Position numbers and translations under genes: made by a program | Part shown: piece by piece, positions 18,434-46,521 of the stretch | How the letters are laid out: each line of letters begins with the position of its first letter | Numbering within the stretch: position 1 is the stretch's first letter | Source of the DNA: Giardia intestinalis | Taxonomy: Eukaryota | Assembly (NCBI GenBank): GCA_000002435.2 | Contig: CM018793.1 | DNA length: 64,000 nt | Direction: 5' to 3' (one strand) | The notes under the pieces: generated by a model | What the model saw: only the letters and a program-made list of their open reading frames with translations | Told to the model about the DNA's origin: nothing | Database searches by the model: none

Positions 18434-18638
18434 GCTTTTTTGTCCTGACTCGGATTTTGTGCTGAATTTACATGTTGCTATTTATGAAACAAAGCTCACG
18501 CATACACAGGCTCCGGAAAAATAAATGTAGCGAACCCACGCGCAAGCGTTGCTACGAGGCGATGGAGACAAAAGCAGTTACGTTCGCAACTCTCTGAGGG
18601 TTCCTGATGCTTCCTTGGATGTCCGAGCCTTCCTTTAC

Positions 18639-35456: not shown

Positions 35457-35537
35457 ATGCAGCACAGGCAGATGCCACGAAGGGGCGGACTAGTGAACAG
35501 AGCTGTCATGGCCTGTGTGACAGAGCGCCGGGCCATA

Positions 35538-37313
35538 ATGTTCTACGCAGTTTTACTGATCGGCCTTGCGCTTCAGCTGGCGACAGAGGAGTGCACACCT
35601 GTTTCTTCCGGTGGCCCCAACACTTGCAAGGCCTGTGACGCTGTCATCAACGGCAAGAAGTACTGCTCGCAGTGCAATGATACTGGGAATTCTGATTCCA
35701 GTGGCGCCCCGACAGACGGAGTGTGCTCAGCAGACAATAACGAGTGCAGCCAAAAACAAGATGGGAAGTGTACACAGTGCGCTAATAAATCCTTCATGTA
35801 CAAGGGCGGATGCTACAAGGATAGCCAGGCACCTGGCAACACGATGTGTGAAACAGCAACTGATGGAGTGTGCACGCAGGCTAAGGCTGGGTACTTCCTA
35901 CCACCCGATGCTGATAGAGATAATGCACACCAATCGGTCATACCATGTGGAGATGACACAGTAGTAACGCTTGGAAATAGCAAACAGTACAAGGGCGTAC
36001 CGCACTGCACTCAGTGTGAGAAGCCCACAGAGGCAAGTGATACTACTACTGCCAAGGCTGCGACGTGCACGGCTTGTGAGGACGGGTTCTTTGGGGCTAC
36101 TTGTGAAGCATGCCAAGACGAGAATTGCGCTACGTGTGCCATGACAGGCAATAACAAGTGCAGTAAGTGTAAAGGAACTGGTACTAAGACATATCTGAAA
36201 GTGGACGGTGGCAGCACAGGCACGTGCGTCGAAGCATCTGGATGTACAGCTGCTACGTTTCCAAAGGTCGATGAACAACAGGGAAACAAGTGCGCTGCAT
36301 GTAATAGTGTGCCAGATGGTGGAATCGCTAATTGTGCGACGTGCAGTCTGCTCACTCAAGGATCTAGAGCCGCCCCTTTGGTCACATGCTTGACGTGTGA
36401 ACAAAATAAGTATCTCACTCCAGAAAAGAATGCGTGCTTAGATACCTGCCCTGCTGGAATGTATGCCGTTAGTGGCGATAGCGGCAATGTTTGTACCCCC
36501 TGCCACGAGTCGTGCGCAAGCTGTAGCAATGACGCAGCAACGTCGTGCACGGCCTGCTATCCGGGGCATGTGCTGAGTCGGTCGTCTGGTGACGCAGGAA
36601 CGTGCATAAAAGAGTGCACGGGAGACTTTATGGCCCACTGCAAGGCCGACGGCTGCTCACTGAACGTCGGAGGCTCGAAGTACTGCGATCAGTGCGAGGA
36701 GGGGTACGCCCCAGTCGACGGCGTCTGCACATCCATACCTGCAACAGCGAGAGATGCCTCCGGATGTAAGGCAAGTGGCGGGAAATGCACTGAGTGTGGG
36801 GCAAACTACGCTCTGTTATCGGGCGGATGCTACAACACACAGAAGCTTCCTGGTAGCTCTGTGTGTACGGCTGCACAGAATAAGGGACAATGCCAAACGT
36901 GTGCCAATGGACAAAGCCCAGCTGGAGGAAAATGTCCGGCGTGTACTGAAGGATGTGTGAAGTGTGCGGGTAGTAAGGAAACCTGCACAGATTGCTTAGC
37001 AGGGTATTACAAAGGTGCCGGTGATAAATGCTTCAAATGCACGGATAGTGATAAGGCTAGCTCTAATGCAATAACTGGTGTAGAAAACTGCATAAGCTGT
37101 GCCCCGCCAGCTGGTGGCAATGGCCCTGTCACCTGTTACGTAACGCAACAAAAGGCTGACGATGGCACCGGCGGAGATACTGGAGGAGACAGCACGAACA
37201 AGAGCGGCCTCTCCACGGGCGCCATCGCGGGGATCTCCGTCGCTGTGGTCGCTGTCGTGGGGGGCCTCGTGGGCTTCCTCTGCTGGTGGTTCCTCTGCCG
37301 GGGGAAGGCGTGA
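35538..37313 (+). CDS. Variant-specific surface protein (VSP), about 591 aa from the signal-peptide Met
   Basis: N-terminal hydrophobic signal peptide [15 protein letters not shown]; more than 25 CXXC motifs; GGCY motif; C-terminal TM segment plus the invariant [17 protein letters not shown] tail. The conserved 3' motif CTTAGGTAGTGAAT starts at the stop codon. The start is trimmed to the ATG at 35538. Confidence 0.9.
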
Positions 37314-37327
37314 CTTAGGTAGTGAAT
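37314..37327 (+). promoter_or_regulatory. Conserved VSP 3' end and poly(A) signal (CTTAGGTAGTGAAT)
   Basis: It directly abuts the VSP stop codon. The same TAGGTAGTRAAY core recurs at 37590, at 40296 (minus strand) and at 42942. Confidence 0.6.
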
Positions 37328-37395
37328 GCTGTACAGTGATAGTGATAGTGCTATGTGGTGTGACATGCTCTGTGGGTGACTGCAAGAGCTGTGTG

Positions 37396-37584
37396 ATGGA
37401 TGATGTGTGTGGGGAGTGCAGCGATGGGTTCAGCATAGAGGGTGGCAGGTGTGTGTCTTCTGGCACCAACAGGAGCGGGCTCAGCGCGGATGCCATCGCG
37501 GGGATCTCTGTGGCTGTCGTCGTCGTCGTCGGAGGGCTTGTCGGCTTCCTCTGCTGGTGGTTCGTGTGCAGAGGAAAAGCGTAG
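37396..37584 (+). pseudogene. Truncated VSP 3' fragment (last CXXC module, TM and CRGKA tail), a tandem partial duplicate of a VSP 3' end
   Basis: It encodes ...[76 protein letters not shown]. There is no signal peptide and no in-frame Met upstream except the one at 37396. It is followed by its own CTTAGGTAGTAAAT motif (37590-37603). Confidence 0.55.
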
Positions 37585-38135
37585 ATGTACTTAGGTAGTA
37601 AATACGTCACTGTATAAGCCTATCACTCCTGTTTCCAGGGCCTCGCCTGTAGGTGCATTCAAGGATCTCACGGGCAATTCTTATTCAATTTCTGGCCGTC
37701 CGGAGATGAGGGTTGGTTTTGGATAACATAACGAGAGAGTCCTCTCCAGTGATATATCCAGAGCCTAGCGCCTTCCCCGGTCGCTCCGCAGGGGTGTGCT
37801 CAGACCGAATGCGTACTTCGGTCCTTTCGGGGTTCAGGCCTTCTTACGGACTCTCTGGTCCACCAATGGCGCCTCTTCTTGGTCTTCCTTCGTGGCGGGT
37901 GAAGCTCCGGTCGCTGTCTTTTTTAGATGCCCCGTCTGTCGGGGGCTGCCATCGGGCTCTCCGCTGGCTGGGCCCCTCGGTGTCCGTCCGGCTGTGGTTC
38001 TGGGCAGTGGTCCCACAGTCGCGGTCACGTAGGTCCCAGTGGGCCGGCTGGTGGGTGGGGCGGGGGTATGGGGCGGTGAGGCTGGAGGGGCTCTGGTGGG
38101 ACCAGGTGGTGGGTGTTCGTATGTGCCCCTGAGCT
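37585..38135 (+). repeat. Inverted-repeat arm A (3' flank of VSP 35538..37313 and its tail fragment)
   Basis: The translated ORFs on this arm (37713..38132 +, 37796..38032 +, 37844..38287 -) reappear almost residue-for-residue on the opposite strand at 39626..40274. Direct nucleotide comparison of 37690-37800 with the reverse complement of 40090-40200 gives about 80% identity, rising above 90% over 37863-38075 versus 40024-39799. Confidence 0.8.
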
Positions 38136-39759
38136 CCTGATGAGTGGGGTGATCGCAGCTGTGGTGACTGGGGGCTGTCCATCTGTGACTCACCCCTCTG
38201 TGTGCTCGTGGTCTGTGAGTGCCTCCACCCAGACAACGCCTCAGGAGCCGTGCACACCGGGACAGAGAGGATGACCAAGGGGGTCAAGCAGCCCCGCTAC
38301 GAGAGATGAGAGTGCACAGCAACCAGCCTGATCTGCAGGGCTGCTCGAGCGATGTAGTGGTAGACGGCTCCCTCTGACAGCGACCCTGGTGACTGCACTG
38401 GCCTGCTCTCGAGGCTGAGTGACAGTGTGCACAGATGGACCTGAGTGCAGGAGGACCATCCACACACGAACAGACTGTGTAGACCCAGAGAGGACTGGAG
38501 TCTGCTCGGGACACGCTGACTGTGCCCCCATACGAGAGCACCAGGCAACCACCCGAGCACCCGAGAGGCAACAACAGACACGGGCACCAGAGATCCCCAA
38601 CCAGATACATTGCTACGCTCATCCACAGGGGCATCAGAGGACCAGGTGGGGTCACCCTCACAGTCAGGGCCTGATAGGAAGCCAGAGGACTCACGCAGCA
38701 CAGTAGGTCCAAGGGAGGCACACTCCAGGCAGGTGAGCAGTGGCAGAGCCCTGACAGCTGCCAGCCCCCATGACACCCAGGCAGGCACCAGACTCACCGA
38801 AGACTCCGCTGGCCTCGACTGTCTTCATTGATGACCCGAGGGGGCAGCAGCCAGAGGAGTGAGGAGGCCTTCGGACGCCACAAGAGGCCCGGCTGTCCAG
38901 CAGGCTACGAGGCAGACAGGTGACCTCTGAGCACCACCCAGGCACAGAGCCGACCATCAGAGTGATGCCCGATCACAGAGATGATCACGAGCACCCTCCA
39001 CTGCACTCTGAGGGGCTGTCAATCATCCCAGCTGCCTCTCATAGCAGACCTCCTTGGGGGCAGTGCAGTGGGTCCCAGCTCATGCAGGAGGGTGCACGCC
39101 CCTCGGCATAGGATGCCCCGGCTCTCCCCGAGGGGTCATCAGAGCCACGAGAGGTGTTAAGGTTAGTAGACCACACCGGGAACTCCCGAGGGCACAGCAG
39201 GTGATGTTGGGTGATCCTCAGCGTGCTCCTCTCTGATGGTAGAGCATCCTGAGACCAAGGAGGCTCACCTCTGCCTACGGACGACACACAGCGCTCCACA
39301 ACGAGGACCCACCAGGAGCAGCACAGCTGGTCACGGGGATAGTGCAGCCACCCGGTGCCCCACCGTGTTAGTCTTTTGAGTCATCACACTAGAGGCATGA
39401 GAGAACCCCATCCCATCCACAGGCTCATCCACACCCCTGCTGGCCCGAGGTGAACTACCGTCGAGGCACTGGACAGGGCATGCCAGGGGCTCAGCAGATC
39501 CACACAGAGCATCAGCACAGAGCATCAGCGAGTAGCAGGAGAGGCTGCGATGGCCTGCCTCAACCCTCACGCACCAGCCAGACAGAGAGGCAGTACTGCC
39601 CGAGACAAGGGGCCAAGGGAGGCGCTCAGTCAGGGGGACACGACACGATCGTCGGTGCCTGTGTCTTGGAGTGCAACGAAGGCTGGGGATCAGACACAAC
39701 CACCTTAGCAAACAGAGCGGGGATCACCCACCACCCCACTGGCCCACTAGACCCAGGGA
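38136..39759. other. GC-rich spacer, ORF-free (only Pro/Arg-rich GC-artefact ORFs), between the VSP-flank inverted-repeat arms
   Basis: No ORF has recognisable protein features. Composition is above 60% GC. It contains a small direct duplication acagagcatcagc x2 at about 39503-39530. Confidence 0.5.
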
Positions 39760-40310
39760 CACATACAAGCACCCCCCACCTCAGCCCCCACCAGGAGCCT
39801 ACCAGCCTCACCGCCCCATACCCCCGCCCCACCCACCAGCCGGCCCACTGGGACCTACGTGACCGCGACTGTGGGACCACTGCCCAGAACCACAGCCGGA
39901 CGGACACCGAGGGGCCCAGCCAGCGGAGAGCCCGATGGCAGCCCCCGACAGACGGGGCATCTAAAAAAGACAGCGACCAGAGCTTCACCCACCACGAAGG
40001 AAGACCAAGGAGAGGCGCCACTGGTGGACGATGTACATGGTGAGTAAGCGGAATCCCAGGCCGACTGAGCAAGCATTCCCGGGTGTGCACACTCAGCTGA
40101 GCACACCCCTGCGGAGCGACCAGGGAAGGTGCCAGGTTTTAGATATACTAAAAGAGAGGAGCTCCTCGTTATATCATCCACAACCAACCTTTGTCTCCGG
40201 ACACGGCCAAAGGAGCGAGAATTTATTCGTGAGATTTCTGGATCGTACCTACAAGCACCCGGTAGCACATCCATATAAGCTACATAAAGTAACGCGTTTA
40301 CTACCTAAGT
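39760..40310 (-). repeat. Inverted-repeat arm B (3' flank of VSP 40311..42638)
   Basis: Reverse-complement counterpart of arm A. It includes the VSP 3' motif (GTTTACTACCTAAG, 40296-40309 on the plus strand, reading CTTAGGTAGTAAAC on the minus strand) and the downstream block tggccgtgtccggagacaaaggttgg...ggtcgctccgcaggggtgtgctcag. Confidence 0.8.
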
Positions 40311-42638
40311 CTACGCCTTCCCCCTGCAGAGGAACCACCAGCAGAGGAAGCCCACGAGACCCCCCACAACGACGATGACTGCGACGGAGATCCCCGCGAT
40401 GGCGCCAGTGGAGAGCCCGCTCTTGTTCGTGCTACCACCGGCACTGTCACCGTTCATGAGGTAGCAGAGAACGGAGCCAGTACTAGACGATGGAGGAGCG
40501 CAGCTCATGCAGCCAGCAACTCCCTTGACACTTCCACTGTTGCTGTCACACGAAGTGCATGGTCCAGCTGCTGATCCGACCATATAGTACCCAGCTGCGC
40601 ATGACGTACACTGGTCAGAGCTATCTGCAGCTGAACATGTATTACAGGTTGAATGACACGAGGGGCATGCTCCATCATTGGGCCGAAGACTATTAGCACA
40701 TGTTTCGCACTTACCCCTGCTATCAGCTAATGTGCATATCTGTTTGCCTGGCTGCTTGGTAGTTTCATAGCAGCCGCCTTCCTTGAGGAAGTAGTTAGCG
40801 GCGCATTTGATACATGCTCCATTATTCATTTCAGTACAGAAAGCTACTCGTGCGTTACTTGTTGTACAGACCCCGTTCAGAGGAGCCTGATTATCCACTG
40901 AGCACTGGGAGCAGTAGTCTGTCCCGCCGATCCTTGCCCCACAGACCTTACATCCGTTCTTGTCCGCCGTACACGCATCCCCGCAGGTGCCCCCTTGCAC
41001 AGGATCACTACTTTTGTATATTAATGCCTTGCCAGCAGGACAAGCACTACACTGATTGTTGGCTGGCCCAACGCACTCAGCGCACTCAGGGCTGCATGCC
41101 TTACACTTCCTGTCAGTATCTCCATAGTATCCGCTGATGGTCGTGCAGTCAGGTATGCACTGGTTTGTTGGAGTGAGATAATTGTTGTCATTACATTCAG
41201 TGCAGACCTCTCTGTCAGTCTTCGGGTTATCACAGGCCTTGCAGTTGGGAGTATTGCAGGCCCCTGCCTTCGGAACACACGTGAGCCCGTCCTCTGACGG
41301 CTGGTACGTCTCCGTGCACGTGCAGATTCCTCCTGCCTCGTTTGCGTTATCGGGGCACTTCGCTATGCAGCCCTTTCCGTTCGGCTGGACCTTCTGTCCG
41401 ACCGTCGCACAGCCCGTGCATGTCTGCTCGCCCCCAGGAGGCGTTGCGCACGTGCTACAGCCGGGTATCGGTGGGTCACAGGCCGTTTTCAGGACACACG
41501 TGAGCCCGTCCTCTGACGGCTGGTACGTCTCCGTGCACGTGCAGATTCCTCCTGCCTCGTTTGCGTTATCGGGGCACTTCGCTATGCAGCCCTTTCCGTT
41601 CGGCTGGACCTTCTGTCCGACCGTCGCACAGCCCGTGCATGTCTGCTCGCCCCCAGGAGGCGTTGCGCACGTGCTACAGCCGGGTATCGGTGGGTCACAG
41701 GCCGTTTTCAGGACACACGTGAGCCCGTCCTCTGACGGCTGGTACGTCTCCGTGCACGTGCAGATTCCTCCTGCCTCGTTTGCGTTATCGGGGCACTTCG
41801 CTATGCAGCCCTTTCCGTTCGGCTGGACCTTCTGTCCGACCGTCGCACAGCCCGTGCATGTCTGCTCGCCCCCAGGAGGCGTTGCGCACGTGCTACAGCC
41901 GGGTATCGGTGGGTCACAGGCCGTTTTCAGGACACACGTGAGCCCGTCCTCTGACGGCTGGTACGTCTCCGTGCACGTGCAGATTCCTCCTGCCTCGTTT
42001 GCGTTATCGGGGCACTTCGCTATGCAGCCCTTTCCGTTCGGCTGGACCTTCTGTCCGACCGTCGCACAGCCCGTGCATGTCTGCTCGCCCCCAGGAGGCG
42101 TTGCGCACGTGCTACAGCCGGGTATCGGTGGGTCACAGGCCGTTTTCAGGACACACGTGAGCCCGTCCTCTGACGGCTGGTACGTCTCCGTGCACGTGCA
42201 GATTCCTCCTGCCTCGTTTGCGTTATCGGGGCACTTCGCTATGCAGCCCTTTCCGTTCGGCTGGACCTTCTGTCCGACCGTCGCACAGCCCGTGCATGTC
42301 TGCTCGCCCCCAGGAGGCGTTGCGCACGTGCTACAGCCGGGTATCGGTGGGTCACAGGCCGTTTTCAGGACACACGTGAGCCCGTCCTCTGACGGCTGGT
42401 ACGTCTCCGTGCACGTGCAGATTCCTCCTGCCTCGTTTGCGTTATCGGGGCACTTCGCTATGCAGCCCTTTCCGTTCGGCTGGACCTTCTGTCCGACCGT
42501 CGCACAGCCCGTGCATGTCTGCTCGCCCCCAGGAGGCGTTGCGCACGTGCTACAGCCGGGTATCGGTGGGTCACAGGCCGTTTTCGGGCCGATTCCTGCT
42601 AGAACCGTTGTGCACACTAAAAGAATTACTGCCAACAT
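40311..42638 (-). CDS. Variant-specific surface protein (VSP, 775 aa) containing six identical 73-aa tandem repeats
   Basis: Signal peptide MLAVILLVCTTVLAGIG; a six-fold repeat KTACDPPIPGCSTCATPPGGEQTCTGCATVGQKVQPNGKGCIAKCPDNANEAGGICTCTETYQPSEDGLTCVL; then canonical CXXC-rich VSP body, GGCY motif, TM segment and [12 protein letters not shown] tail. Confidence 0.9.
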   Translation of the reverse strand: MLAVILLVCTTVLAGIGPKTACDPPIPGCSTCATPPGGEQTCTGCATVGQKVQPNGKGCIAKCPDNANEAGGICTCTETYQPSEDGLTCVLKTACDPPIPGCSTCATPPGGEQTCTGCATVGQKVQPNGKGCIAKCPDNANEAGGICTCTETYQPSEDGLTCVLKTACDPPIPGCSTCATPPGGEQTCTGCATVGQKVQPNGKGCIAKCPDNANEAGGICTCTETYQPSEDGLTCVLKTACDPPIPGCSTCATPPGGEQTCTGCATVGQKVQPNGKGCIAKCPDNANEAGGICTCTETYQPSEDGLTCVLKTACDPPIPGCSTCATPPGGEQTCTGCATVGQKVQPNGKGCIAKCPDNANEAGGICTCTETYQPSEDGLTCVLKTACDPPIPGCSTCATPPGGEQTCTGCATVGQKVQPNGKGCIAKCPDNANEAGGICTCTETYQPSEDGLTCVPKAGACNTPNCKACDNPKTDREVCTECNDNNYLTPTNQCIPDCTTISGYYGDTDRKCKACSPECAECVGPANNQCSACPAGKALIYKSSDPVQGGTCGDACTADKNGCKVCGARIGGTDYCSQCSVDNQAPLNGVCTTSNARVAFCTEMNNGACIKCAANYFLKEGGCYETTKQPGKQICTLADSRGKCETCANSLRPNDGACPSCHSTCNTCSAADSSDQCTSCAAGYYMVGSAAGPCTSCDSNSGSVKGVAGCMSCAPPSSSTGSVLCYLMNGDSAGGSTNKSGLSTGAIAGISVAVIVVVGGLVGFLCWWFLCRGKA
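41271..42584. repeat. Six 219-bp tandem repeats, nucleotide-identical where compared, inside the VSP coding sequence
   Basis: The string gtgagcccgtcctctgacggctggtacgtctccgtgcacgtgcag recurs at 41281, 41500, 41719, 41938, 42157 and 42376 with identical intervening sequence. Only the outermost junctions differ. Confidence 0.9.
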
Positions 42639-42922
42639 TAAGTTTAAGCTTACGCTCGATTATTATTCTCTTCAATTAAGCTTATAATTAATCCATAAGT
42701 TATAGACAAACCACTGTTACCTTTTGATAAATCAATTAGAATGGAAAAGAATAAAATCAAGAGCACACCTACCAGAGGCCGGCTGATAGTGCGGTTCTCC
42801 CTGGCTTCAATAGAAACAGGATGAGTGAGGGCTAGACTCAGATCGTGCGTCCCTTGCGGAAACTAATAATTGTTCAGAGATGCATTCCTATACATTGCTG
42901 TCAGTATGTTTGTCGACTTTTT

Positions 42923-42955
42923 TGCAGAGGCAAGGTGTAGATTTAGGTAGTAAAT
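42923..42955 (+). pseudogene. Relic of a VSP 3' end: codons CRGKV* followed by the conserved TTTAGGTAGTAAAT motif
   Basis: tgc aga ggc aag gtg tag at 42923-42940 is one substitution from the invariant CRGKA*. It is followed by atttaggtagtaaatgcg. The upstream frame opens after a stop only about 20 codons earlier, so no gene body remains. Confidence 0.5.
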
Positions 42956-44101
42956 GCGTTAACTGATATGTGCAGATCCCTCTGTGCCCAGCTCGGGCTC
43001 CTCAGTAGCATACCTGGATCTGATGGATAGAGAAGCACACCTACTATAAGCATCTCTTGCTGATGGCCTGTAACCACCTTTTACAGTCCAGTGTGCATCC
43101 TCTAGTGCTCCACTTCCCCCTGTGGCCAGTGTATCTCTAGGGCGAAGCAGACTCTTTTGAAAAGGTATTGACCTAGCACCATGAAGGAGCGCGGGGCACT
43201 GCACTGGGCCCGTACACAGGTCAGAGGCCCGTAGTTGTAGGTCAGCAAGATCCCGGTGCGACGGTCGGGTGCTCGTCCATCAGAGCTCTCAGGATGGTGG
43301 CCAGGGGGCAGGAGCGACGCCTTTCTTGTCGGTCGCGACGCTGGTCAGTTGTCGATGCAAAATGTGCAAGGCCCCACAGGCGAGGAGCACAGAAGGGCAC
43401 AGGGAGCGTAAGGCCACCAGCAACTCGTAACTTTTTATATCTTGGTGGCCGGTCTCAGCACTTCGTAGGTGCAGATATGAGAAGCTGGGCCGAGTGATCT
43501 GCTGGTGGAGGGGCCGACACACACTTCTCTAAGGGTTCTGCCATGGGTGACGACGATGGTAGGCCGCACCACTGCAGGACCGACGCACGCCAGAAATAGA
43601 TGAAAGGCTCGCAAGCAGGTGCAGACTGGAGCGCCAGCCGCTGGCCGGATCACCCGCACAGGCACGCTCTGGTTACTTCAATAGATGGTTCAGTGGCACC
43701 TTAACGGAAAACACTGCTGCGCTCCACTTGCTGGCCATTTGAGGCACGCAGGTTCGATTGGTCCCAGGGCCACCGCTAAGCGTGGCATGACAGGCTATCT
43801 CCCAACATCGGGCGACGGTAAGACTCACGCCTACTTTTAGCCAACTGAGCTCGAAGCAATCCATGCCCTTGCGGGTCCATACTGGCGTGGTCTGTACAGC
43901 TATGCGCAGTGATGCATAACAGACCTCGGAACCGTAGACACCCTGGGCGCGCCCCTTGCTGCGCAGGGCCAGGGACGCCGGGAGGGCTCGGGCCGCCAAA
44001 TGCCTTGGTTCGCAGTCTTTCGCAGGAAAACCAGCTAGGAAGCGTAACCGCACGCCTCTTCGAGGTGAACGGGAATGGCGCAGCACTGTTCAGATTATAA
44101 C

Positions 44102-45874
44102 CTAAAGAGCATGAAAGTGTGTAATCATCTGTAGTTTGTCTGCATCCTTATATGAACAGAAACTTCCAGATTTGGCTATTATGACTTCACTGTCCCCTTC
44201 AAAATCCATTTCACGTACATATCCTTTAGCCACGTGAACGGTCGCAATCATGCTAAGCCGCTGAGAAAGGGCATCTTTCATTGTTGCAGTCTTATTTTGG
44301 TACTTCCTAGTCATCCTCTTATCATCGCAAGATTGAATCCTCTGAAGCTGGCCGTGGGTATCTACCTCAAACGAATAAATAACACTCCGTGTCTCTGAAA
44401 GTGTGTCTTGAGCATCAAGTCCTAGAGAAATTTTCATCGTAAGCCCTAGTGGTGTATTAGGATCCTCTACTTCTACTGTATCTAGTTTTCCATTTTTTGC
44501 TTCAGTGGTACAGCTGGCAGAAGCTTTGAAGTCTTCGTCAACTATCTTGAATAAAGGAGTAAGCACCTCTACTGTAGAACCAGATGATGTGCTACTCCAG
44601 TCTTCATTTCTCTTGCCTTCTATGGTACTGCCCCCCACTACTGATAGCCTAGTCAATGGATTTTTAGATGTACTAATATTAGTATGGGATTGATATTCTT
44701 CACAAACTTTACAAATAAAATCTTTGGTTCGTATTCTGTTAAATTCCCTAAGATTGCTAGCTGTCAAAGTACAGTCATTATATATAGTCCCCGATATAGA
44801 ATAAAAATATGCTAAAGCGGACCCAACGCAGTCAGTTATACCAGGATTGGTGCACTGATTGGGCTGTGCCAAGGCTATTGGGTCAAGCTTGTACTTAGTG
44901 TTGAGAAGAGGGAGCGAATCAAGGAGTTGTAACTTTGATAGATACTGATCTACTAGGTGCTGCCTTTTAGCCGAGATCTTGAGACTGTTGCAAATATGAA
45001 CAAAGTCGTCCTCGCCGAATGTATTTTTCTTGTTGGTGCGATGGGATTTTTCATAATCTCGAATCTTGTTTTTAACAATCGTGCTTGATATACTATACAA
45101 GGCAGTCAGAGCATTACCAAATGCGTCTGCCGACAGACACTGTGAGTAATTTGTGTCATGAAGGTAATACGATAACAGATAAGGAAACCCTCTGATCTTT
45201 GGAAGGCGATATAAGAAGTAACATATTTGTACATATACCTCGCACGTGATGACTTCGACGCTCGTGTAAGCATACTCCCAGATGAACCAAATATCTTCAA
45301 CTGTCGCAGAGAGCTTATAGAGTGTCTCTGTACAGACAACATCGTACTTAGTGAACTGCTTGGCAAGGGCCATGCCCAGTGTACGGCGAGAAATATGTCC
45401 ATGGCCGTGAAAGTCAAGAAGGTGGAAATCGTGGGCCACTTCTGCTGGCCTAAATGCAAAGAAGCTAAAGTCGGCATAAAGCCCGTCAGTGCCTAGAGAG
45501 CCAGATGCACGTGTATGTCCTAGTGCACCACGTTCAGCCCTTCCATTAGATTTCTTGCTGTCATCTTGAGATGTCGATCGAGCTTCCAAACCCTGTATTG
45601 AATAGCCTTTTGGGATTAGTGGGAGCACAGCAGTCAATTTTGTGCGAGGTTTATCCTTGGGAGGTTTTCTTTGCAGACATTGTTGTGGGCTATTTTTCTG
45701 TTGACTAGAAGACGAAGAAGAAGAGGACAGCTTTCTCTTTAATAGTCGGGCCTTCTGACTAGGCGATAGCATCGCCAAAAACATATCTTCGTCTTGGCGG
45801 CTGCCAGCTAAACCCATGGTCGACGCACCAAATGACAATTTTTTGCTTGAAACTGACCTGGTTCCAAAGCTCAA
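44102..45874 (-). CDS. Hypothetical protein (590 aa)
   Basis: A long ORF with a Ser-rich N-terminal region (SSSSSSSSQQ) and no recognisable catalytic motifs. Confidence 0.55.
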   Translation of the reverse strand: MSFGTRSVSSKKLSFGASTMGLAGSRQDEDMFLAMLSPSQKARLLKRKLSSSSSSSSQQKNSPQQCLQRKPPKDKPRTKLTAVLPLIPKGYSIQGLEARSTSQDDSKKSNGRAERGALGHTRASGSLGTDGLYADFSFFAFRPAEVAHDFHLLDFHGHGHISRRTLGMALAKQFTKYDVVCTETLYKLSATVEDIWFIWEYAYTSVEVITCEVYVQICYFLYRLPKIRGFPYLLSYYLHDTNYSQCLSADAFGNALTALYSISSTIVKNKIRDYEKSHRTNKKNTFGEDDFVHICNSLKISAKRQHLVDQYLSKLQLLDSLPLLNTKYKLDPIALAQPNQCTNPGITDCVGSALAYFYSISGTIYNDCTLTASNLREFNRIRTKDFICKVCEEYQSHTNISTSKNPLTRLSVVGGSTIEGKRNEDWSSTSSGSTVEVLTPLFKIVDEDFKASASCTTEAKNGKLDTVEVEDPNTPLGLTMKISLGLDAQDTLSETRSVIYSFEVDTHGQLQRIQSCDDKRMTRKYQNKTATMKDALSQRLSMIATVHVAKGYVREMDFEGDSEVIIAKSGSFCSYKDADKLQMITHFHAL

Positions 45875-45974
45875 TTACGAGATAGAAGCACCCGCTGCCA
45901 ATGAATACGTGTCCTTCCAAGGCAATGGTCTGAGACAGTAGACTTCAATTCCCAAAATTTTCATTTACCTTTTA

Positions 45975-46460
45975 ATGAGTGGAAACAACCCTCTGAAGAA
46001 GCTTGTCACCATCCAAACCACTTTAAAGAAGATTATGATGCGAATAACTAACATAGAAGAGCAGATAGAGCAAGAGGAGCGCGAAAAGGCGCGGTGTATG
46101 ATAGGGATTACCCGAAGCATTATGAAGAGACATATAGAGCAGAACAAAACTTTGGAGCGTGAGCTAGCAATTCTTATGATGGTGGACGAACGTCTCACAA
46201 ACCAAGCGAATGCTAATGAAAAACTTAGTAGAGAACTCGTCAGCCTCGTGACGTACTTCAAAGACGCAGTGATCCCAAGAGAGAGGCAGCTGGCTCCTGT
46301 GTTCGTGCCGGCCATGACGCCCCAGACCGCCCAGGTGATTCAGAAGGCTCCGGCTCCAAGGCCGCTTTCTCACATTCGGCAGATCACGCATTTGAACAGT
46401 TCGGTAGGGTCTTTCATTACAACCACAGCAACGCCTGTTACGAAAGACGTATCAAAGTAA
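45975..46460 (+). CDS. Hypothetical small coiled-coil protein (161 aa)
   Basis: An AT-rich initiator aaaattttcatttacctttta precedes the ATG. A charged heptad-like segment (EEQIEQEEREKAR...) is present. An antisense ORF of 116 aa overlaps it but lacks these features. Confidence 0.4.
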   Translation: MSGNNPLKKLVTIQTTLKKIMMRITNIEEQIEQEEREKARCMIGITRSIMKRHIEQNKTLERELAILMMVDERLTNQANANEKLSRELVSLVTYFKDAVIPRERQLAPVFVPAMTPQTAQVIQKAPAPRPLSHIRQITHLNSSVGSFITTTATPVTKDVSK

Positions 46461-46521
46461 TGTCTACCTCTACCGTCATCAAAATCATGGTAGACTTCTT
46501 GTAAATTTTACCTTTAATCAA

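Follow-up and report, generated by a model that had tools for sequence, protein, structure and literature searches.

The inverted repeat between the two convergent VSP genes VSP-L and VSP-R of Giardia intestinalis is probably the palindrome at the centre of a tail-to-tail VSP cassette, which would have arisen by inverted duplication and been partly re-homogenised by gene conversion. The locus lies in a stretch of 64,000 nucleotides that was analysed as a whole (referred to as the window), and it falls into the small 'other tail to tail' class of VSP pairs described by Adam 2010 (PMC2996952). To judge from its sequence, the repeat fits a worn copy of this already described module.

VSP-L and VSP-R face each other on the + and – strand, with ORFs that end at 37313 and 40311, 2997 nt apart (Table 1). 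Counted from an upstream in-frame ATG at 35457, VSP-L would be 618 aa long; its product ends in CRGKA-stop and is 95% identical to the WB VSP XP_001703913.1. VSP-R likewise ends in CRGKA and contains six 219-nt tandem repeats (41269-42663); it is probably VSP236 or VSP275 (TR219) of Adam 2010 (PMC2996952), in which case the repeats were collapsed there. The two ORFs (618 vs 775 aa) are alike at their 3′ ends only (87-90%).

Table 1. Features of the VSP-L/VSP-R locus, in window coordinates
Feature	Coordinates	Strand	Description	Evidence
VSP-L	35538..37313	+	Complete VSP, 591 aa from TAATGTT initiator ATG	Translation, initiator context
VSP-L extended poly(A) signal	37314..37330	+	CTTAGGTAGTGAAT; hexamer AGTGAA at 37321	Sequence, motif scan
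VSP pseudogene tail	37331..37605	+	Last ~80 codons of a VSP, stop 37582-37584, own extended poly(A) signal	
Left outer arm	37606..37855	.	~80% complementary to 40032-40284, many indels	Gapped alignment
Left core	37856..38133	.	37856-38085 98% identical to right core; 37909-38085 perfect	
Spacer	38134..39751	.	1.6 kb, unique in window, non-coding, multi-copy family	
Right core	39752..40031	.	Partner of 37856-38133	
Right outer arm	40032..40310	.	Last 17 nt are the VSP-R extended poly(A) signal	
VSP-R	40311..42638	–	Complete VSP, 775 aa, TAATGTT initiator	Translation, start context

The sequence-only reading had described an inverted repeat with arms of ~0.55 kb around a 1.6-kb spacer. Such a repeat indeed exists far beyond chance (left arm against right arm, blastn E = 2.8e-135), but its arms are not uniform. 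A repeat search retrieved arms of 268 nt (37858-38125 and 39762-40029) that are 92% complementary and 1636 nt apart, together with weaker collinear pieces, and a gapped alignment of 37463-38217 with 40432-39695 yielded 602 identities over 680 positions. In this alignment the core segments 37856-38085 and 39802-40031 are identical at 225 of 230 positions, including a perfect run of 177 nt, whereas further out, over 270 nt per arm, similarity drops to ~80% with many indels. Similarity between the outer arms nevertheless persists, in weaker form, outward to the VSPs, and the arms stop 546 and 559 nt beyond the stop codons; on the left, weaker similarity runs on from the core to an inner boundary at ~38133. 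The core itself is non-VSP sequence, and its perfect part has no other match within the window. The conserved 3′ ends of VSP-L (37172-37313) and VSP-R (40311-40452) would form the outermost part of a possible left and right stem. This VSP-coding part amounts to 140 nt at 87-90% and lies just outside 37314-40310, with 37172-37311 being 87% complementary to 40313-40452 in the repeat search. Tandem repeats within the interval were trivial ones only, and no repeat within the window accounts for the short-read contig ends at ~29,266 and ~43,850.

This arrangement corresponds to that of known tail-to-tail VSP pairs, of which there are 12-13 per genome, 2.5-2.8 kb apart and with ~0.5 kb of inverted 3′ flank. 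Their spacing has been given as 2393-3222 nt (Adam 2010, PMC2996952) and as 2526-2813 nt (Xu 2020, PMC7000408). In most pairs the flanks are identical over 486-559 nt (318 and 354 nt in two lower cases) before diverging abruptly, and in identical pairs the repeat takes in the whole VSP (Adam 2010, PMC2996952). Intergenic regions are conserved across different pairs, and pseudogenes are frequent between tail-to-tail pairs (preprint 10.1101/2022.03.07.483299). The locus studied here combines convergent VSPs, a spacing in the 2.4-3.2 kb range and ~0.5-kb inverted flanks with an abrupt end. Its spacing becomes 2723 nt after subtraction of an inserted segment of 274 nt (37314-37587), which consists of the VSP-L poly(A) signal and the VSP tail remnant. 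With ORFs that differ and outer arms of ~80% similarity, the locus falls outside the subclass of identical inverted pairs. The 2010 assembly probably had VSP-L and VSP-R on separate contigs, and VSP-L together with the remnant seems to figure there as the 'overlapping linear array' VSP31/VSP30, a match by size only (the 618-aa VSP-L and an overlapping 140-aa ORF; Additional file 1 of PMC2996952). The locus was therefore not recorded as tail-to-tail in that study.

Homologues of the spacer and arm were found adjoining other VSPs in contigs of other assemblies (L001, L021, L026, L027 and L028), at 83-91% identity for spacer plus arm and 88-93% for the spacer, these contigs being too short to show pair orientation. 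In L021 an arm and spacer homologous at 83% come after a different VSP of 625 aa, L026 contains the tail of a VSP together with an arm and the spacer's left half, and L027 is a 1639-nt contig corresponding to the whole spacer at 89%. The short-read contigs L027 and L028 both begin at the inner boundary of the repeat (window positions 38090 and 38092). Downstream of a VSP-L homologue elsewhere (L025, 84%), the flank is unrelated. Cassette sequence has been exchanged between loci, and relative to the window, isolate DH shows 96.5% identity in the flanking genes and 93.5% in the middle of VSP-R, while the VSP 3′ end, arm and spacer reach only 83%. A 21-mer from the core, used in one JGI metagenome scan, returned three contigs, none of them similar to the window.

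The footprint of a gene replacement is located directly after VSP-L, in the form of a VSP tail that carries a separate poly(A) signal (AGTAAAT at 37597 in the motif scan). This pseudogene tail was recognised in the translation of ORF 37162-37584 and by a tblastn match at 37441-37581, and it is 80-81% identical to the 3′ end of VSP-R. It is the only VSP-like sequence inside 37314-40310 (~37330-37584), its partner (40311-40432) being outside. Judged by this similarity, the tail is what is left of the gene that originally faced VSP-R on the left.

In the scenario we favour, a VSP and its 3′ flank would have been duplicated in inverted orientation, giving a cassette of two convergent VSPs ~2.7 kb apart (a 0.55-kb 3′ flank, the 1.6-kb spacer and the same flank inverted), and gene conversion between the arms would have kept these alike. 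Later recombination would then have replaced most of the left copy with a different VSP (VSP-L, with an upstream region and poly(A) signal of its own), so that only the last 250 nt of the old left gene were left. Because long flanking homology was lost, the arms would subsequently have drifted to ~80%, the exception being the 230-nt tract adjoining the spacer, which would have been re-homogenised recently. Core identity is 98% from arm to arm at this locus vs 79-86% between cassettes, and it is from this pattern that we infer gene conversion; concerted evolution was checked in this window only, as no other contig covers both arms. The repeat would thus act at the DNA level, as a product of, and substrate for, the recombination that turns over the VSP repertoire. 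It would have no function as RNA, and an RNA hairpin, rather than being its purpose, would form only now and then when polyadenylation fails.

The spacer has a G+C content of 62%, is A-rich and T-poor on the + strand, and is single copy within the window by blastn. Protein coding in the spacer and arms was rejected, all six frames being broken by 24-28 stops per 903 codons. The ORFs of the two arms do not match in frame, and Pfam searches of the six frames of 37590-40300 returned no family at E <= 1. Substitutions among six spacer variants showed no codon phase (0.18/0.19/0.18), and most indels were not multiples of 3. A retrotransposon relic in the spacer was likewise undetected by Pfam, and a bacterial promoter and terminator scan was set aside as irrelevant to Giardia.

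Between cassettes, identity is 0.79-0.86 in the core, 0.88-0.93 in the spacer and 0.52-0.73 in the outer arm, and the left outer arm is the least conserved stretch of the 3′ flank among the cassette copies. Each core has a single AT-rich patch, and a T6/A6 patch is kept in 4 of 5 arms. Going by these identities, the better conservation of a non-coding core and spacer than of the outer arm is unexplained by a neutral relic. It might in turn indicate that core, spacer and core together constitute a unit of ~2.1 kb bounded by terminal inverted repeats of 230 nt. This unit could be a selfish or a non-autonomous element; alternatively, it could be a functional DNA module beside which VSPs duplicate, with a recombination site, a chromatin site or antisense transcription from the AT-rich patch of the core as candidate functions. 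The inner boundary shared by several assemblies, the retained T6/A6 patch and the transposable-element relics around duplicated VSP pairs (preprint 10.1101/2022.03.07.483299) would be in line with such a unit; in the literature, retrotransposon relics occur mainly between head-to-head VSP pairs. However, no transposase or reverse-transcriptase signal was found in six frames by Pfam, and neither a transposase ORF nor a relic of one, as in TIR transposons or foldback elements, emerged from Pfam or from coding signatures. Moreover, although the 230-nt cores flank the spacer, the weaker arm similarity reaches as far as the VSPs, which is unlike a clean terminal repeat, and in identical pairs the repeat takes in the whole VSP (Adam 2010, PMC2996952). 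We consider this explanation quite unlikely.

As for the RNA level, the sequence-only reading had argued from geometry that an RNA spanning both arms would fold into a long hairpin, and RNAfold predicted just that for either strand. The interval 37314-40310 was predicted to form one long hairpin with a minimum free energy of –1676 (+) and –1710 (–) kcal/mol, 469 (+) and 492 (–) long-range pairs, and longest uninterrupted helices of 177 and 208 bp. Over the folds of the locus, long-range pairs were put at ~600. The further claim that the stem reaches the conserved VSP 3′ end held in the fold of 37100-40520 but not for 37314-40310, from which both real VSP 3′ ends are absent because that interval begins and stops at the two stop codons. 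In 37100-40520, long-range pairing was predicted to add ~–660 kcal/mol over the best fold with pairs at most 600 nt apart. There, 115-123 of the 142 nt of the true VSP-L 3′ end were paired to antisense sequence from the 3′ end of VSP-R, in helices of 17-45 bp, and the pseudogene tail was unpaired (0 of 125). As a stand-alone structured RNA the core was rejected (Z-scores of 0.28 and –0.89, with only 2 compensatory pairs among 5 arms), and matches to known RNA families in 37100-40520 were at chance level only in Rfam.

The long hairpin is predicted only for RNA that runs past one or two strong VSP poly(A) signals, as read-through needs bypass of two extended signals on the + strand and of one on the – strand. 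The VSP-L signal fits the published extended signal ACUUAGRUAGURAAYRY (preprint 10.1101/2022.03.07.483299), the VSP-R signal on the – strand contains AGTAAAC at 40302, and VSP 3′ UTRs are only 24-27 nt long with an extended, VSP-specific signal (preprint 10.1101/2022.03.07.483299). Beyond the VSP signals, the motif scan detected no AGTRAAY hexamer for 2.7 kb on either strand, an absence that is not significant given ~0.4 expected from base composition. In the literature some VSPs use alternative distal poly(A) sites, antisense reads outnumber sense reads in most VSPs, and antisense poly(A) sites are ascribed to run-through. These transcripts, the convergent genes with a TAATGTT initiator each and the lack of an internal poly(A) hexamer between them would also suit convergent read-through without any hairpin, in which antisense RNA through the partner gene pairs in trans with its mRNA or transcription interferes, the repeat being uninvolved. 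This is unlikely, as it needs 3 kb of transcription past strong signals, is not specific to the locus and leaves the conservation of core and spacer unaccounted for.

If read-through from VSP-R or VSP-L did produce the both-arm hairpin, Dicer might cut it into 25-27-nt RNAs, of which those from the VSP 3′ end would act on many VSP mRNAs. Besides the predicted pairing energy, the perfect helices of 177-208 bp with shorter ones of 26-45 bp over the VSP 3′ ends, the hexamer-free 2.7 kb and the distal poly(A) use and antisense excess mentioned above, several points agree with this proposal. When 26-mers are taken from one VSP 3′ end, those at 15-46% of positions match the 3′ ends of other VSPs with at most 2 mismatches, dsRNA of 100-200 bp expressed in Giardia has been reported to yield small RNAs, and an RNAi-like model for VSP control exists. 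However, the only near-perfect dsRNA would be the non-VSP core, and therefore the majority of products would miss VSP mRNAs; within the stem, VSP sequence makes up the outermost 140 nt only and is imperfect. The short 3′ UTRs with their extended signal and the insignificant lack of hexamers also count against it, and the outer arms are decaying, so there is no selection maintaining complementarity there. None of 100 published Argonaute-bound small RNAs mapped to the repeat with at most 5 mismatches, in a list filtered for miRNA-like precursors rather than the full read set, and the genes of the locus are absent from a gene-level small-RNA table dominated by the known endo-siRNA region SRI (PMC11080815). 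Expressed dsRNA gave only ~30% knock-down in Giardia in the literature. Identical tail-to-tail pairs would serve far better as sources of a hairpin, and therefore this locus is not special, while membership of the known tail-to-tail family offers a simpler origin for the repeat. Altogether, we regard a hairpin trigger at this locus as very unlikely. An extension that we likewise regard as very unlikely would have the dozen or so tail-to-tail cassettes, including the decayed one, serve as hairpin-RNA genes, in which read-through RNA forms the dsRNA, Dicer products of the VSP 3′ end seed family-wide silencing and core and spacer are kept to nucleate or stabilise the hairpin.

The RNAi-like model of Giardia antigenic variation does not yet explain where its double-stranded or antisense VSP RNA comes from; should tail-to-tail cassettes supply it, this long-standing question would become testable with existing sequencing data. 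On the more likely DNA-level reading, the locus presents a clear footprint of VSP repertoire change, made up of a palindromic module, an overwritten gene copy, a left-over tail and a cassette that diverges from its positional orthologue far beyond the flanking genes.

Endogenous hpRNA loci that give endo-siRNAs include the Drosophila hpRNA genes and the inverted-repeat siRNA loci of Trypanosoma brucei. Like these, the locus carries a long inverted repeat interrupted by a spacer; if transcribed, it could, according to the predicted fold, form several hundred bp of intramolecular dsRNA. Unlike in these, transcription would hinge on read-through of poly(A) signals, and for the best dsRNA segment there is no target gene elsewhere in the window. 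Small RNAs proposed for VSP control comprise snoRNA-derived miRNAs (miR2, miR4, miR5 and others), Argonaute-bound miRNAs against VSP coding sequence (PMC3937270) and Girep repeat RNAs (PMC2817412); GlsR2/miR5 is encoded within the same window (18526-18631). The repeat resembles these as a genome-encoded candidate source of small RNAs partly complementary to many VSP mRNAs, whereas they have sequenced small RNAs and reporter tests. The Giardia endo-siRNA regions SRI-SRIII give siRNA-size RNAs (Liao et al. 2014, as relayed in PMC11080815). The SRI genes (table in PMC11080815) overlap the genes of the CH991767 1.35-1.39 Mb cluster in Saraiya's table, while the window, judged from the miR5 coordinate, is on CH991768 at ~104 kb, and the two are therefore different places. 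Compared with vsp1267-type tail-to-tail pairs, the two VSPs here are not identical and the arms are ~80% alike except for the 230-nt core, but the locus shares with those pairs the convergent VSPs, a distance that is ~2.7 kb when the remnant is left out of the count, inverted flanks of ~0.55 kb and a pseudogene between the genes.

The interval 37314-40310 is exactly the gap between the stop codons of two convergent surface-antigen genes, VSP-L and VSP-R, both of which begin at a TAATGTT initiator; a short-read contig (SRR10919358) matches the window over 6.5 kb at 100% identity. A repeat search revealed best arms at 37858-38125 and 39762-40029 (268 nt, 92% complementary, separated by 1636 nt), along with weaker collinear pairs (e.g. 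37698-37803 with 40097-40202 at 80%) and pairs involving the VSP 3′ ends. Gapped alignment of 37463 to 38217 against 40432 to 39695 yielded 602 identities over 680 aligned positions (arm-against-arm blastn, E = 2.8e-135). The arms are non-uniform: the core is near-perfect (225/230 identical, perfect across 37909-38085), whereas the outer arms, the 270 nt from the core to each VSP, are decaying (about 80% alike, with some twenty indels). VSP-L is followed by a VSP pseudogene tail bearing its own extended poly(A) signal, and it is with this tail, not with VSP-L, that the right arm is collinear.

Features of the VSP-L/VSP-R locus and its surroundings
Feature	Coordinates	Strand	Description
GlsR2 box C/D snoRNA	18526-18631	+	Rfam RF02335, 133.9 bits
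VSP-L	35457/35538-37313	+	ORF ending in the VSP signature ...CRGKA
VSP pseudogene tail		+	250 nt, after VSP-L stop codon and poly(A) signal; last ~80 VSP codons
Core, left / right	37856-38085 / 39802-40031		Inner part of each arm
T6 patch, left core	37921-37926	+	Sole AT-rich patch of this G+C-rich core
A6 patch, right core	39962-39967	+	Sole AT-rich patch of this G+C-rich core
VSP-R	40311-42638	-	775 aa, ends ...CRGKA, six 219-nt tandem repeats
VSP-tail relic	42924-42958	+	35 nt, 'CRGKV*' then extended poly(A) signal-like ATTTAGGTAGTAAATGCG

The sequence-only reading had proposed that read-through RNA from this interval forms a hairpin dsRNA whose stem extends into the conserved VSP 3′ end. 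RNAfold of 37314-40310 indeed predicted a single long hairpin on each strand (MFE -1676 kcal/mol on + and -1710 on -). Pairs bridging more than 1.2 kb numbered 469 (+) or 492 (-), and the longest helix without interruption measured 177 bp (+) or 208 bp (-). For 37100-40520, allowing long-range pairs contributed about -660 kcal/mol relative to the best fold restricted to pairs within 600 nt. The near-perfect part of the predicted stem is the non-VSP core, however, and not the VSP 3′ end. Folding of 37100-40520 did pair the true 3′ end of VSP-L with antisense sequence from the 3′ end of VSP-R, but imperfectly and just outside 37314-40310, in helices of 17, 26, 33, 12 and 18 bp (+) or 18, 26, 45 and 12 bp (-), while the pseudogene tail was looped out (0/125 nt paired).

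Whether such a hairpin triggers small RNAs against VSPs is a separate matter, and we consider this quite improbable. In favour of a trigger, besides the predicted fold, exact runs of 20-41 nt are common to VSP 3′ ends, so that, allowing up to 2 mismatches, 26-mers of one VSP tail have matches in other tails at 15-46% of positions. The literature further reports distal poly(A) use by some VSPs and, for most VSPs, an excess of antisense over sense reads; it also contains an RNAi-like model with its trigger still unexplained. AGTRAAY, scanned on both strands, occurred only at three VSP-type signals (37321 (+), 37597 (+) and 40302 (-)) and nowhere else in the 2.7 kb, but only about 0.4 others are expected from base composition. 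Against a trigger, VSP 3′ UTRs are reported as 24-27 nt with an extended VSP-specific signal (10.1101/2022.03.07.483299), two of which would have to be bypassed by + strand read-through; the best Dicer substrate is the non-VSP core, and the outer arms are in decay. Allowing up to 5 mismatches, none of 100 Argonaute-bound small RNAs (Saraiya 2014) mapped to the repeat, although miR5 matched perfectly elsewhere in the window, and the genes of this locus do not appear in a gene-level small-RNA table where the SRI region, on another scaffold, predominates. Moreover, expressed dsRNA gave only about 30% knock-down in Giardia, antisense VSP RNA would already be obtainable from convergent transcription alone, and, if hairpins mattered, identical VSP pairs, whose arms take in entire VSPs, should be much more potent sources than the decayed copy here. 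Full-text literature searches found no proposal of hairpin RNAs from VSP pairs.

Somewhat better than an even chance, and the most likely reading, is an origin at the DNA level, in which inverted duplication would have been followed by gene conversion between arms and by replacement of one VSP. Related sequences occur in contigs of other Giardia assemblies. The isolate DH contig L001 is orthologous by position to the right side (L001:1-6498 against 38873-46486), with identities of 96.5% in flanking genes and 93.5% in mid VSP-R but only 83% across the 3′ end of the VSP, the arm and the spacer, a drop that suggests a recombination breakpoint within the VSP-R ORF. In L021 a different VSP (625 aa) precedes an arm and spacer homologous at 83%, and L026 holds a VSP tail, arm and left half of the spacer. 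L027 (1639 nt) is an entire spacer at 89%; in the sample it derives from, flanking genes match the window at 98.5%. L027 and L028 both terminate at the repeat's inner edge, which is what an exact inverted duplicate beyond that point in those genomes would cause. L025 contains a VSP-L homologue (84%, including the upstream region) followed by unrelated sequence, with neither tail remnant nor arm downstream. Together, these comparisons show that arm-spacer-arm is a multi-copy module beside different VSPs; VSP-L seems to be a later arrival here.

Between cassettes, the VSP 3′ coding end showed identities of 0.83-0.86, the outer arm 0.52-0.73 and the core 0.79-0.86, with a drop beyond about +550 nt; the spacer stood at 0.88-0.93. 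Within this locus the two copies of the core are 98% identical, yet cores of different cassettes differ by 14-21%, a pattern of concerted evolution that recent short-tract gene conversion would produce. Such conversion leaves the between-cassette conservation of core and spacer without explanation. The core alone showed no significant fold, and only 2 compensatory pairs were found among five arms. A coding spacer was ruled out, as its variable sites are even across the three codon phases, its indels are mostly not multiples of three and it has no Pfam match. The AT-rich patch of each core is kept in 4/5 arms from different cassettes and could be a candidate cryptic initiator, antisense into the neighbouring VSP.

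Several observations concern the surroundings. The published 26-nt miR5, for which repression of VSP expression has been reported, exactly matches 18606-18631 within GlsR2, which places a known VSP-directed small-RNA gene 19 kb from the VSP pair and assigns the window to the old WB scaffold CH991768 (at ~104 kb). The + strand has a 501-codon open frame (41182-42687) antisense to the VSP-R repeats (41269-42663); by length alone, the 219-nt unit resembles the Girep repeat RNAs (222 nt), reportedly transcribed from both strands and similar to VSP repeat units (PMC2817412). The VSP-tail relic sits upstream of VSP-R, about 290 nt from its start codon, and is oriented toward it. The WB VSP XP_001703913.1 (614 aa) shares every residue with VSP-L (35457-37313) downstream of about position 100 and is 95% identical to it overall; the differences fall in its signal peptide and initial cysteine-rich segment. 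This would make it a near-duplicate gene whose 5′ end was swapped, or else a variant introduced by the assembly. In more than 20 independent short-read Giardia assemblies, contigs all end at ~29,266 and ~43,850, leaving a 14.6-kb VSP island never connected to its flanks there; no repeat within the window accounts for these break points, and 29.3-35.4 kb lacks any ORF above 170 aa.

Tail-to-tail VSPs have been described before. Adam et al. 2010 (PMC2996952) reported ten such pairs of identical VSPs as a "cryptic observation", nine of them tabulated with ORF-to-ORF distances of 2393-3222 nt and 3′ flanks identical for mostly 486-559 nt (318 and 354 in two) before diverging abruptly, together with a few non-identical pairs about 3 kb apart. 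A PacBio assembly contained 12 pairs spaced 2526-2813 nt (Xu et al. 2020, PMC7000408), and a 2022 preprint (10.1101/2022.03.07.483299) counted 13, with intergenic regions highly conserved across pairs and frequent pseudogenes between them. Matched by size and annotation only, VSP31 (GL50803_115742, 618 aa) and VSP30 (115474, 140 aa), listed as an "overlapping linear array" (PMC2996952), correspond to VSP-L and a 140-aa ORF containing the pseudogene tail, and VSP-R corresponds to a TR219 VSP (555 or 549 aa, unplaced contig) whose repeats are collapsed; if both matches are true, the tail-to-tail layout of this locus was hidden in 2010. The VSP-L to VSP-R distance, less an inserted 274 nt, is 2723 nt, and the arms end 546 and 559 nt beyond the stop codons; both values fall within the published class, of which this arrangement is a worn member.
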